A stretch of DNA of 64,000 nucleotides. It comes from Escherichia coli. GTDB taxonomy: Bacteria; Pseudomonadota; Gammaproteobacteria; Enterobacterales; Enterobacteriaceae. Below are positions 41,158 to 42,971 of this stretch, in pieces; the stretch's first letter is position 1; each line of letters begins with the position of its first letter. Under the pieces are notes generated by a model. The model made no database searches. It had not been told where the DNA came from and was given only the letters and a program-made list of their open reading frames with translations. The stretch is from assembly GCF_003018235.1 (NCBI RefSeq), contig NZ_CP027437.1; one strand, given 5' to 3'. The position numbers and the translations under genes are program-made.

Positions 41158-41277
41158 ACGTTAGTTTTTGTGTCGTTCTCGGCGGTGCTTCGCTTGGCCG
41201 GGCTATGTTAGAAAAAGCCCTCATCTTGGACTGCACCCCAAAAGTTGGACACCCAACTGATTAAGGTGCAGTTTTTT

Positions 41278-41748
41278 ATGGCAAAGCCAAAATATTCTCT
41301 CGAAACCAGATTAGCTGTCGTTACTCATTATCTTGCCGGACACGATGGCGCACGTCGTACCGCTGAACGTTTTGGTGTTGAAGAAACATCAGTGCGACGC
41401 AGGGTAAGAGCCTGGCAACTCCACGGTATTGATGGTATTACATGGAAAAATGACCGCCATTCTCCTGAGTTTCGACTGACGGTTGTCCTGAAGTCTCTGA
41501 GTGAAGAACTTACCATGCGCGAAGCCGCCGCACGGTTTAATATCTCCAATGAATCCGTTGTCCGGCACTGGGTGAAGGTTTACAAAGACACTAGTGAAGC
41601 AGGACTTCTGAACATAAAACCAGGCCGGAGCAAGGACATGACAAAACCTCTAAAAACACCTCCACTTACGATGAAGAATTGGAAAAGTTATCTCCCGAAG
41701 AACTGCGGGCGGAACTCCGTTACCTTCGCGCAGAGAATGCCTATCTAA
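41278..41748 (+). CDS. IS3-family transposase OrfA (HTH); C-terminal leucine-zipper segment is in another frame
   Basis: MAKPKYSLETRLAVV... HTH region; the expected zipper (YDEELEKLSPEELRAELRYLRAENAYLKKLKAL) translates from a different frame around 41660-41800. Confidence 0.6.
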   Translation: MAKPKYSLETRLAVVTHYLAGHDGARRTAERFGVEETSVRRRVRAWQLHGIDGITWKNDRHSPEFRLTVVLKSLSEELTMREAAARFNISNESVVRHWVKVYKDTSEAGLLNIKPGRSKDMTKPLKTPPLTMKNWKSYLPKNCGRNSVTFAQRMPI

Positions 41749-42003
41749 AAAAGCTGAAGGCCTTAGTTCAAAGCGAGAAAAACGGCAGAAAGCCCGGATA
41801 ATCAGTGAGCTAAGGCTGAAGCATGCGCTCGGTGATCTTCTGCGTGCCGCGGGTATGTCCCGCAGTACGTGGTATCACAATATGAATGCCCTGAAGCGAG
41901 TGGACAGGCATGCCGGACTGAAAGACAAATCAGAGAGATTTATCATTATCACAAAGGGCATTATGGCTACCGCAGAATCACGCTCTCACTGAGAAAATAG
42001 GGC

Positions 42004-42639
42004 GTGTTGGTAAACCATAAAACAGTGCAGCGGCTGATGGCAGAGCTGTCGCTCCGCTCTGTGATAAGGGTGAAGAAATATCGTTCCTGGAAAGGGGAAG
42101 TAGGCAAAGCTGCACCCAATATCCTGATCCGGAACTTTGGTGCAACGAAGTCCAACGAAAAATGGGTGACGGATGTTACAGAGTTCTCGGTACAGGGTAA
42201 AAAGCTGTACCTGTCGACAGTTCTCGATCTGTTTAACCGGGAGATTATCTCCTACAGCCTGTCAGAAAGGCTGGTGATGGAGATGATTAATACGATGCTG
42301 CACGATGCATTCTCAGTGTTTGGACCGGAGGATGCACCGTTGCTGCACACGGTTCAGGGCTGGCAATATCGAATGGCAGGCTATCAGGCAACGTTAAAGG
42401 CCCATGGAATGACACAAAGTATGTCGCGCAAGGGAAACTGTCTGGATAACGCAGTGATGGAGAACTTCTTCGGCGCACTGAAATCGGAGTGTTTTTACCT
42501 GAACAGGTTTAGCGATCTGAATGAACTGAGGAAAGCGATAGAGGACTATATCCATTATTATAACAACGAGCGGATCAGCCTGAAATTAAAAGGCCTGAGT
42601 CCGGTAGAATACCGAACTCAGGCCCTGAAAGCCGCTTAA
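42004..42639 (+). pseudogene. IS3-family transposase OrfB, integrase-core fragment; N-terminal part cut off by in-frame TAG
   Basis: 211 aa ORF with DDE-core region; upstream in-frame sequence ...HYHKGHYGYRRITLSLRK then TAG, then GVLVNHKTVQ. Confidence 0.65.
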
Positions 42640-42971
42640 CATGAACTGTCCAACTTTATGGGGGCAGTCCATCCATGAGGGCTTTTTTTGTGCACAGAAA
42701 ATCCCCTGCTAGGCTGAGGGGGGGGCCGGAAAGCTTTCAGCTTTGAGCCAGTTATTAAAACCCTTTTGATTTGTTAAAACACCTTGCGGTCTGGCAACTG
42801 CAAGTGTCAAACAAGAAATCAAAAGGGGGGGCTAATGGGGAACAAAGAGAGCTTAGCGCACACCCGATTGAACGATAAATCTCACATATTTTTTGCGCCA
42901 AAATACCGAAGACAGGTGGTAAGGTAATCCCCCCGAAAAAACCGGTGCGATGTCCGGGTTAGGAAAGAGGA

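Follow-up and report, generated by a model that had tools for sequence, protein, structure and literature searches.

The interval between ugd and hisI in this 64-kb stretch of Escherichia coli DNA (the window, meaning the whole stretch analysed) is very probably a non-functional scar: two dead insertion sequences (ISs) nested around the terminator of ugd, lying in a segment that was imported without wzzB. The first-pass annotation took the K-12 gene order as its reference; on that basis it assigned the interval to wzzB, reported no wzz-like ORF in it and regarded an IS as holding the wzzB position. The absence of the gene is confirmed and extends to the entire window: a tblastn search with K-12 WzzB in all six frames has a best E of 1.6, blastn with K-12 wzzB and its intergenic DNA returns only chance words of at most 26 nt, and these searches reveal no WzzB-like ORF or remnant either in the ugd–hisI interval or in the rest of the window. 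The position ascribed to the IS does not survive comparison, as it lies in the ugd terminator loop, at a site that is empty in PSS-15 and KSC64. As detailed below, the loss of wzzB was most likely an allelic replacement in which the whole gnd-ugd-hisI segment was exchanged.

A decayed IS3-family element in the predicted ugd terminator

The first of the two ISs is a dead IS3-family element related to ISKpn1 (41227..42671, 1445 bp, + strand), recognized by its terminal repeats, alignment and Pfam matches. Its termini are 25-nt inverted repeats (41227-41251 and 42647-42671; 88% complementary) of the form TGGACTG...CAGTCCA. Intact 1447-bp copies carried by plasmids of C. braakii and P. ananatis match it at 96.5% and 96.0% nucleotide identity, respectively, and copies annotated as ISKpn1 at 79.5%. 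We take ISKpn1 and IS1397 to be members of the IS150 group of the IS3 family. The window element shares with them its length (1445 bp against 1445-1447 bp), the TG...CA terminal inverted repeats and the coding organization: an orfA with helix-turn-helix (HTH) and leucine zipper parts and an orfB with an rve/DDE domain, joined by a -1 programmed frameshift at the slippery heptamer A AAA AAG (41747-41753) in the orfA–orfB overlap. The orfA piece matches Pfam HTH_28 (8.8e-18) and HTH_Tnp_1, and the orfB piece matches rve (2.3e-21), rve_2 and rve_3; for the intact 96.5% relative, the NF033516 score is 413 bits, against a cut-off of 160. Conceptual translation of the intact relatives yields an OrfA of 174 aa and, via the heptamer, a stop-free OrfAB of 454 aa.

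In contrast to ISKpn1 and IS1397, the window copy is dead, carrying four lesions: two 1-bp deletions, one stop and the loss of a catalytic Asp. Alignment to the intact 1447-bp copies and their translation show that, in the orfA remnant (41278..41801, + strand), a 1-bp deletion after 41669 has left the HTH part in one frame and the leucine zipper (41679-41801) in another. In the orfB (DDE/rve) remnant (41753..42639, + strand; delineated by alignment, Pfam and the PGAP label) a 1-bp deletion within the A-run at 41927-41929 shifts the frame, a nonsense codon has arisen at 41998-42000 (CAG to TAG), and an Asp to Val change at 42352-42354 (GAT to GTT) converts HTDQG to HTVQG, the affected residue being read as the second, catalytic Asp of the DDE motif. 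Thus, the first-pass description of an IS3-family element with inverted-repeat ends and both frames disrupted was correct, and the second deletion and the Asp change are to be added to it. In NCTC10973, this element is listed by PGAP as a pseudogene, 'frameshifted; internal stop'.

The element separates the two halves of a single hairpin. On its left are the arm AAAAAGCCCTCAT and loop bases (41212..41226, + strand), and on its right TCC, the arm ATGAGGGC and a run of 7 T (42672..42689, + strand); the two arms form a perfect 13-nt inverted repeat, with the right arm at 42675-42687. This hairpin is unbroken in PSS-15, KSC64 and L006, and in PSS-15 it lies 54 bp past the ugd stop codon. At the homologous place PSS-15 has the empty site AAAAAGCCCTCATAAATGAGGTTTTTTT, as against AAAAAGCCCTCATCT[IS]TCCATGAGGGCTTTTTTT in the window, and the window site minus the IS and 3 bp has the same length as the PSS-15 empty site. 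The reconstructed empty site has a predicted fold of -22.5 kcal/mol followed by 7 T, making the hairpin and its T-run a predicted rho-independent terminator of ugd; this and the other terminator assignments are based on folding and comparison, a simple terminator scan having called the half-hairpins weakly. As for a target-site duplication beside 41227 and 42671, which the first-pass annotation had raised, the flanking triplets, TCT (41224-41226) and TCC (42672-42674), match in two of three bases, and would represent a putative 3-bp duplication with one later substitution, whereas those of the relatives are perfect and 3-4 bp long (TAA, CAT, TTT and TCGT). Since the two halves of one hairpin surround the IS and the empty site is of equal length, the element is best read from the sequence as a simple insertion into the ugd terminator loop, without adjacent deletion or gene loss. 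The split may alter the 3' end of the ugd mRNA.

This type of location recurs. Five of six independent insertions of the lineage, namely those in the window, C. braakii, P. ananatis, Rahnella and C. freundii, are in the loops of terminator-like hairpins with 3-4 bp duplications, which are perfect in the relatives. Insertion into palindromic units has been shown experimentally for IS1397 and ISKpn1 (PMC1525189). The window lineage resembles them in using a palindrome loop as its insertion site with a 3-4 bp duplication, but differs in being found in rho-independent-terminator-like hairpins and not in REP/PU repeats. We tentatively suggest, as a possibility that falls a little short of being probable, that its transposase recognizes ordinary rho-independent terminator loops of any sequence rather than REP/PU. 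If this were true, such an IS would mark terminators by its position, and wherever an active copy from the Citrobacter, Pantoea and Rahnella plasmids landed, it could separate a gene from its terminator. That the lineage is so consistently found in terminator loops is the only mildly new point of our analysis.

Foreign flanks and the absence of wzzB

On both sides of the interval the sequence departs from that of K-12, making the latter's gene order an inappropriate reference. The ugd gene (UDP-glucose 6-dehydrogenase; 39991..41157, + strand, a 388-aa ORF annotated as ugd in NCTC10973) is a divergent allele, about 74-76% identical to that of K-12 (73.7% in the nucleotide comparison that gives 77.5% to K. 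pneumoniae and 94.9% to PSS-15). In hisIE (42972..43583, - strand) the last 100 bp (42972-43071) are foreign, being 80% (80-83%) identical to K-12 as against 90% to PSS-15; beyond them sliding identity to K-12 rises to 92-100%. This switch to K-12-like sequence points to a crossover near 43072, and hence to a recombination junction inside hisI. Thus, ugd, its terminator and the end of hisI are all of a non-K-12 type (about 74-80% to K-12), which is common to the O89-type haplotype. The K-12 ugd-wzzB and wzzB-hisI intergenic regions show no similarity to the window flanks. In sum, the likeness to the K-12-type ugd-wzzB-hisI arrangement consists in the convergence of ugd and hisIE; the differences are the lack of wzzB, the lack of a match to either intergenic region and the divergence of ugd and the hisI 3' end. 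A search for a donor with the pattern TTAGAAAAAGCCCTCATN{1,4}ATGAGG gave 0 matches in 100,044 species-representative genomes.

The sister O89-type haplotype, represented by PSS-15, carries the same ugd allele and likewise lacks wzzB. Here, an epimerase pseudogene is convergent on ugd, and pseudogenes and IS debris, about 8.4 kb in all, fill the stretch between the terminator and the hisI end. The single K. pneumoniae chromosome examined has no wzzB in its ugd-hisI interval, the order there being ugd, a convergent epimerase, rfbA/rfbB and hisIE. The PSS-15 pseudogene shares 80% amino acid identity with the K. pneumoniae gene beside ugd; judged solely by that identity, it presumably resembles Klebsiella Uge/Gla, and its NCBIfam matches are limited to sub-threshold ones to SDR models. 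IS elements are plentiful at the ugd-hisI junction of related strains, and IS debris between these genes occurs in O89m/G1C strains too (PMC6128206).

Given that the ugd allele, the terminator and the hisI end are foreign and that the sister haplotype is also without wzzB, replacement of the segment is the most likely route by which the gene was lost. This is compatible with the biology of the locus. By the NCTC10973 annotation, the O-antigen genes form a wzm/wzt (ABC transporter) cluster of the O89/O101/O162 family, and in the ABC-transporter pathway Wzz is not used and chain length is set without it. In their 1996 work on the distribution of rol/wzz in E. coli, Dodgson, Amor and Whitfield are said to have found rol missing in O8/O9 group 1 capsule strains. 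The window resembles both these wzzB-less E. coli and the K. pneumoniae ugd-uge-rfb-hisI arrangement in the lack of wzzB and in ABC-transporter export of the O-antigen, and the convergence of an SDR epimerase on ugd in the sister haplotype is a further likeness to K. pneumoniae. It differs from them in the location of the wzm/wzt cluster, which is flanked by galF and gnd instead of ugd and hisI, and in having a ugd-hisI interval reduced to 1.8 kb of IS remnants. With Klebsiella the likeness is one of layout only, and an identity of 77.5% in ugd does not imply Klebsiella as the donor.

The first-pass annotation had proposed that the loss of wzz fits ABC-transporter export and may record how the locus was remodelled. 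The former part is in keeping with the wzm/wzt cluster; what the locus records, however, is a wzzB-less segment that was imported and then underwent IS activity and a deletion, not the removal of wzzB by an IS. Under the latter account, a K-12-like ancestor with the order ugd-wzzB-hisI would have lost wzzB after a switch to ABC-transporter export, either to the IS3-family element or to recombination or deletion promoted by it, such that the IS and the spacer mark the deletion. This would explain why a gene that constitutes the majority state in the species (4789 of 5426 complete E. coli genomes, with about 12% having no detectable wzzB) is absent from a junction at which IS elements abound in related strains. 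However, it is largely refuted by the empty-site comparison: an IS lodged between the halves of one intact hairpin, at a site equal in length to its empty counterpart, leaves no adjacent deletion. Further, no trace of either K-12 intergenic region is seen, the alleles of ugd and of the 3' end of hisI are foreign, and the sister haplotype combines the same ugd allele with another downstream gene and no wzzB. Hence, we consider this account very improbable, and favor import of the wzzB-less segment with a crossover in hisI as what the absence of wzzB in the O162/O101-type haplotype reflects. More generally, the K-12 gene order is a poor reference for laterally acquired O-antigen loci.

An IS200C remnant at the distal junction

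The rest of the interval had been described as about 300 bp of structured spacer. Its G-tracts and nested inverted repeats are real, but it is not anonymous: translated and nucleotide searches found no wzzB remnants in 42672..42971, and the region comprises the left end of an IS200C followed by a terminator-like hairpin of the his operon. The IS200C 5' fragment (42690..42918, + strand, 229 bp, about nt 1-228 of roughly 707) was identified by Rfam, nucleotide identity and alignment to two intact copies, and it starts right after the T-run of the ugd terminator. It is 91-92% identical to annotated IS200C copies (query positions 4-247), and Rfam RF01405 (STnc490) matches at 42700-42825 with 111.9 bits (E 3.9e-23; gathering score 56). 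As in the published anatomy of IS200 (PMC4513863), it contains, in order, a terminator-type inverted repeat, here degraded and with a G-tract (about 42701-42726), a stem-loop in which the Shine-Dalgarno (SD) sequence is sequestered (42761-42827) and the start of tnpA (codons 1-28, 42835-42918), which is cut at ..CAGGTG. Similarity to IS200C ends at 42918, with the rest of tnpA and the right-end hairpin missing; the 30-aa tnpA stub has no match in Pfam or NCBIfam, and PGAP names the fragment in NCTC10973 'IS200/IS605 family transposase, incomplete'.

The fragment is thus like IS200C in its left end, including the art200/STnc490 region, and in its placement straight after the T-run of a host terminator, the two intact copies examined also abutting such T-runs. 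It differs in having retained just the first 229 of about 707 bp and in carrying mutations in the first hairpin and in the putative art200 -35 box. The alignment to intact copies indicates that this hairpin was broken by substitutions and G-run expansion. A role of the G-tracts as G-quadruplex or regulatory elements was considered and rejected, as IS200 itself already has G-runs (GGGGG) in both the terminator repeat and the SD region, of which these tracts are expansions.

The fragment could alternatively have been kept as a domesticated regulatory RNA gene, producing Hfq-binding RNAs put to use by the host, either the antisense art200/STnc490 or a processed 5' tnpA RNA, as in Salmonella. Its Rfam score is about twice the gathering score, its SD-sequestering stem-loop has one base changed relative to intact IS200C, against about 10% substitution in the tnpA codons, and its 229 bp span the art200 start sites (nt 153/154) and promoter region (PMC4513863); further, in Salmonella, host genes are regulated by 5' tnpA RNAs (PMC5435999). 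Nevertheless, the score falls 34 bits under the 146.4 bits of intact IS200C copies, the first hairpin is disrupted, and the art200 -35 box, taking the hexamer at its inferred position, has changed from TTTACA to TTTATC. Moreover, this sequence is present in every IS200 copy, so that selection is not needed to explain it, and comparison gives no sign of constraint, with NCTC10973 differing at 3 of 1901 positions and the other four genomes being 99.7-99.8% identical. Retention as an RNA gene is accordingly, in our estimate, slightly less probable still than IS-mediated loss of wzzB, and we prefer to regard the fragment as a part of the non-functional scar.

Between the end of IS200C similarity at 42918 and the onset of PSS-15 similarity at 42937 is a short junction filler of uncertain origin (42919..42936, no strand assigned), which may represent the right edge of a deletion of the remaining IS200 and DNA beyond it. 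It is followed by the his-operon distal hairpin with a T-run (42937..42971, - strand), which is terminator-like, conserved with PSS-15 and of the donor type, with no match to the K-12 hisI-wzzB intergenic region. Its stem has fewer than 5 clean pairs, and it was missed by the simple terminator scan.

Distribution and proposed history of the junction

Of 5426 complete E. coli genomes, 5 carry this junction over its full length at 99.7-99.8% identity, and the IS lesions are annotated in them. Relative to NCTC10973, homopolymer G and T runs of the window are off by one base. Although ISs are classic misassembly sites and such homopolymer discrepancies might hint at an artefact of assembly or annotation, such as a repeat that collapsed or IS copies joined into a chimera, the recurrence of the junction in five complete genomes that were sequenced independently and come from various countries and sources, together with unique flanking sequence and a coherent split hairpin, renders this extremely unlikely. 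Among the genomes compared, none has an intact IS200 at the site and none has the IS200 without the IS3-family element; accordingly, both the deletion and the succession of events are inferred rather than observed.

Briefly, we advance the following history for the replacement of the wzzB region. In an ancestor of the O89/O101/O162 family, a segment from at least gnd to hisI would have been replaced through recombination by foreign DNA, with one crossover near 43072; the imported DNA would have had a Klebsiella-like layout with no wzzB. In the window, the foreign block would take up 31700-43071, with gnd, the genes from gnd to ugd, ugd itself, its terminator and the hisI 3' end. An IS200C might then have landed at the 3' border of the ugd terminator, and a deletion that began at tnpA codon 28 and stopped just short of the his terminator would have removed the rest of the IS200 along with the intervening DNA. 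What was removed was probably junk; it could in principle have included a donor gene, even a wzz-like one, but none is present in the sister haplotype. Either before or after the IS200C insertion and deletion, the IS3-family element, from a lineage targeting hairpin loops, would have entered the terminator loop with a 3-bp duplication that is now TCT/TCC. Its subsequent decay would have involved the two frameshifts, the nonsense codon and the loss of the catalytic Asp.

The junction itself is an ordinary finding, already annotated in the five RefSeq genomes, and matters little outside annotation. As a marker of lineage, it could be of use in typing.

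The ugd–hisI interval probably lies in imported DNA

The 1.8 kb between ugd (39991-41157, plus strand) and hisIE (42972-43583, minus strand) holds an ordinary scar of IS remains, already recorded by annotation, at an O-antigen/his junction that was gained by lateral transfer. The window runs from colanic-acid genes through galF, the O-antigen cluster, gnd, seven more ORFs and ugd to the his operon, which is encoded on the other strand. All the sequence features described in the first-pass annotation are present, but its interpretation holds only in part. Its statement that no wzz-like ORF lies between ugd and hisI was borne out: tblastn of K-12 WzzB across the whole window gave a best E-value of 1.6, and wzzB with its two K-12 intergenic regions matched the window DNA in chance words only. 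However, the K-12 gene order on which it relied is the wrong reference for this junction: ugd is 73.7% identical to that of K-12, as against 77.5% to that of Klebsiella pneumoniae and 94.9% to that of PSS-15 (which, with KSC64, represents a sister O89-type haplotype), gnd shows a similar pattern, and the hisI end is foreign. The last 100 bp of hisI (42972-43071) are 80% identical to K-12 and 90% to PSS-15, while the sequence past about 43072 is K-12-like (92-100%), a switch that marks a recombination junction within hisI. In PSS-15, the foreign tract extends into hisF. Since these breakpoints fall inside his genes (for the window, some 100 bp inside hisI; for the PSS-15 locus L006, 20954-21750, some 800 bp in, up to hisF), the HisIE C-terminus is of foreign origin. 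From at least gnd as far as the hisI end, the segment is imported and came with a hisI terminus and a terminator of its own.

In the sister haplotype, whose wzm/wzt are 97% identical, an SDR-epimerase pseudogene convergent on ugd comes next after that gene, then a gmd pseudogene and some 8 kb of IS100/IS66/IS110/IS3 debris; the ugd–hisI interval has no wzzB in either PSS-15 or KSC64. A functional version of this arrangement (ugd, convergent epimerase, rfbA/rfbB, glycosyltransferases, hisIE) is seen in one K. pneumoniae chromosome, likewise without wzzB; its epimerase shares 80% amino acid identity with the PSS-15 pseudogene. On the simplest reading, wzzB would have gone when the segment was replaced, and a later deletion beside IS200 may have taken out material like that still in PSS-15; a genome keeping an intermediate state was sought and none was found.

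An IS3-family insertion in the ugd terminator loop

The IS3-family element with inverted-repeat ends, correctly recognized at the outset, spans 41227-42671 (1445 bp), with 25-nt terminal repeats (TGGACTG...CAGTCCA; 88% complementary) and with HTH and rve domains in its broken orf pieces. Perfectly complementary 13-nt arms flank it: AAAAAGCCCTCAT at 41212-41224 and ATGAGGGCTTTTT at 42675-42687. The same ugd allele (96.8%) occurs in five complete genomes that lack the element, and the homologous PSS-15 site, 54 bp past the ugd stop, is an unbroken hairpin with T-run, AAAAAGCCCTCATAAATGAGGTTTTTTT. Taking the IS plus 3 bp out of the window sequence yields a hairpin of PSS-15 length (-22.5 kcal/mol on folding). 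The split arms, the uninterrupted PSS-15 hairpin and the equal reconstructed length together show a simple insertion into the terminator loop, with a putative 3-bp duplication (the flanking triplets now being TCT/TCC) and nothing deleted. Hence, the element did not take the place of wzzB, as had been supposed, and the proposal that wzzB was lost through IS action is very improbable, being contradicted by the intact hairpin arms around the element and by the foreign flanking sequence. The ugd terminator pattern had no match in species-representative genomes.

Insertion at this site fits the habit of the lineage, in which five of six independent insertion sites lie in loops of terminator-like hairpins; four relatives retain perfect 3-4 bp duplications (TAA, CAT, TTT, TCGT). 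Besides the window site (41212-42689), the intact relatives in such loops are plasmid copies of Citrobacter braakii, Pantoea ananatis, Rahnella sikkimica and C. freundii (L009, L010, L014, L015). Insertion into palindromic units has been shown by experiment for IS1397 and ISKpn1 (PMC1525189). The hairpin-plus-T-run sites with 3-4 bp duplications suggest structure-directed targeting of terminators, not REP/PU repeats; this preference of an ISKpn1-related lineage is the sole mildly new point here.

The closest intact copies (1447 bp) are those of the C. braakii (96.5%) and P. ananatis (96.0%) plasmids, with ISKpn1-annotated copies at 79.5%. The intact copies encode a 174-aa OrfA and, via the slippery A AAA AAG, a 454-aa OrfAB scoring 413 bits on the NCBIfam IS3 transposase model (cut-off 160 bits). 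Alignment to them reveals four lesions in the window element. Two had been seen in the first pass, namely the orfA zipper shifted out of frame (a 1-bp deletion after 41669) and the in-frame TAG of orfB (CAG>TAG, 41998-42000). The others are the loss of one base from the A-run 41927-41929, missed earlier, and GAT>GTT at 42352-42354 (HTDQG to HTVQG), which we read as loss of the putative catalytic Asp. A 790-bp left-hand fragment of the lineage, 94% identical to 41227-42015, occurs in many E. coli among the matches listed (e.g., NZ_CP010219.1, 3237295-3238081), labelled only 'helix-turn-helix domain-containing protein'; a few strains (L012, L013) have a full-length dead copy (93%) beside ssrA.

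The spacer is an IS200C remnant

The G-tracts and nested repeats reported for the spacer are real, but the spacer is not anonymous: it comprises an IS200C left end (42690-42918), starting directly after the ugd terminator T-run, 18 bp of unassigned filler and a his-strand hairpin with T-run (42937-42971). The latter is kept in PSS-15 and showed no relationship to the K-12 hisI–wzzB spacer. The left end shares 91-92% identity with annotated IS200C copies, lines up base by base with two intact ones, and matches Rfam RF01405 (STnc490) at 42700-42825 (111.9 bits, E 3.9e-23; intact copies, 146.4 bits). The nested repeats correspond to two features already described for IS200, a terminator repeat at nts 12-34 and an SD-sequestering stem-loop at nts 69-138 (PMC4513863). 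Here, the former (about 42701-42726) is degraded with an expanded G-run, the latter lies at 42761-42827, and a tnpA stub starting at 42835 breaks off at 42918 with codon 28 (..CAGGTG); the same 84 bp are annotated by PGAP as an incomplete IS200/IS605 transposase in strain NCTC10973.

One could picture the fragment as a domesticated IS200-derived sRNA, given that its SD stem-loop is one base off intact IS200C and the start sites of the antisense RNA art200 (nt 153/154, PMC4513863) lie inside it. Yet the first hairpin is broken, the presumed art200 -35 box reads TTTATC in place of TTTACA, the Rfam score falls 34 bits short of intact copies, and any IS200 copy bears the same sequence; domestication is very unlikely. 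All three IS200C copies compared begin right behind a host rho-independent terminator T-run, that of carB, pyk or ugd (L003 790-830; L004 790-830; window 42675-42700). Within the IS200 terminator repeat, position 42707 is T in the window versus A in NCTC10973 (the IS200C consensus), and the ugd T-run (42682-42689) is one T shorter; these differences represent ongoing decay or possibly homopolymer sequencing error.

Distribution and O-antigen context

The exact junction occurs in five complete RefSeq genomes (99.7-99.8% identity), where both IS remnants are already annotated; recurrence in five independent genomes makes an assembly artefact a negligible prospect. Of 5426 complete E. coli genomes, 4789 have a wzzB detectable at blastn sensitivity, which leaves about 12% without one. 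NCTC10973, 99.66% identical to the window across 29 kb, has wzm and wzt labelled 'O89/O101/O162 family' by PGAP. ABC-transporter O-antigens do not use Wzz, and the absence of wzz does fit this export mode, as first suggested. O101 and O162 are among the ABC types, with a methyltransferase proposed as chain terminator (PMC7685785).

The seven gnd–ugd ORFs (33302-39668) encode an FAD oxidoreductase, a hypothetical protein, an NAD(P) oxidoreductase, a sugar-phosphate isomerase/epimerase, an EmrE-like small membrane protein, a GT2 and a 456-aa polytopic membrane protein. Six such genes are candidates for the O162 4-deoxy-D-arabino-hexose side branch, the first being IS-disrupted in O101 (PMC7685785); because that gene (33302-34417) is unbroken in the window, the locus looks O162-like. 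The EmrE-like protein, GT2 and large membrane protein may represent something like a lipid-carrier-linked periplasmic glycosylation module.

E. coli WCHEC005237 is a further case without wzzB: it has a Klebsiella-type capsule locus, and its ugd–hisIE interval holds only IS1 and a wbdC remnant, a pattern described for >200 O89m strains (PMC6128206). O89/O101/O162-family wzm/wzt (93.2% identity; 304 genomes) lie mostly far from galF–gnd (e.g., at 3.39 Mb versus ugd at 1.83 Mb in NZ_CP036177.1), which fits the nfsB–ybdK location described for the O89m variant (PMC6128206); they are at galF–gnd in only 10 complete genomes.
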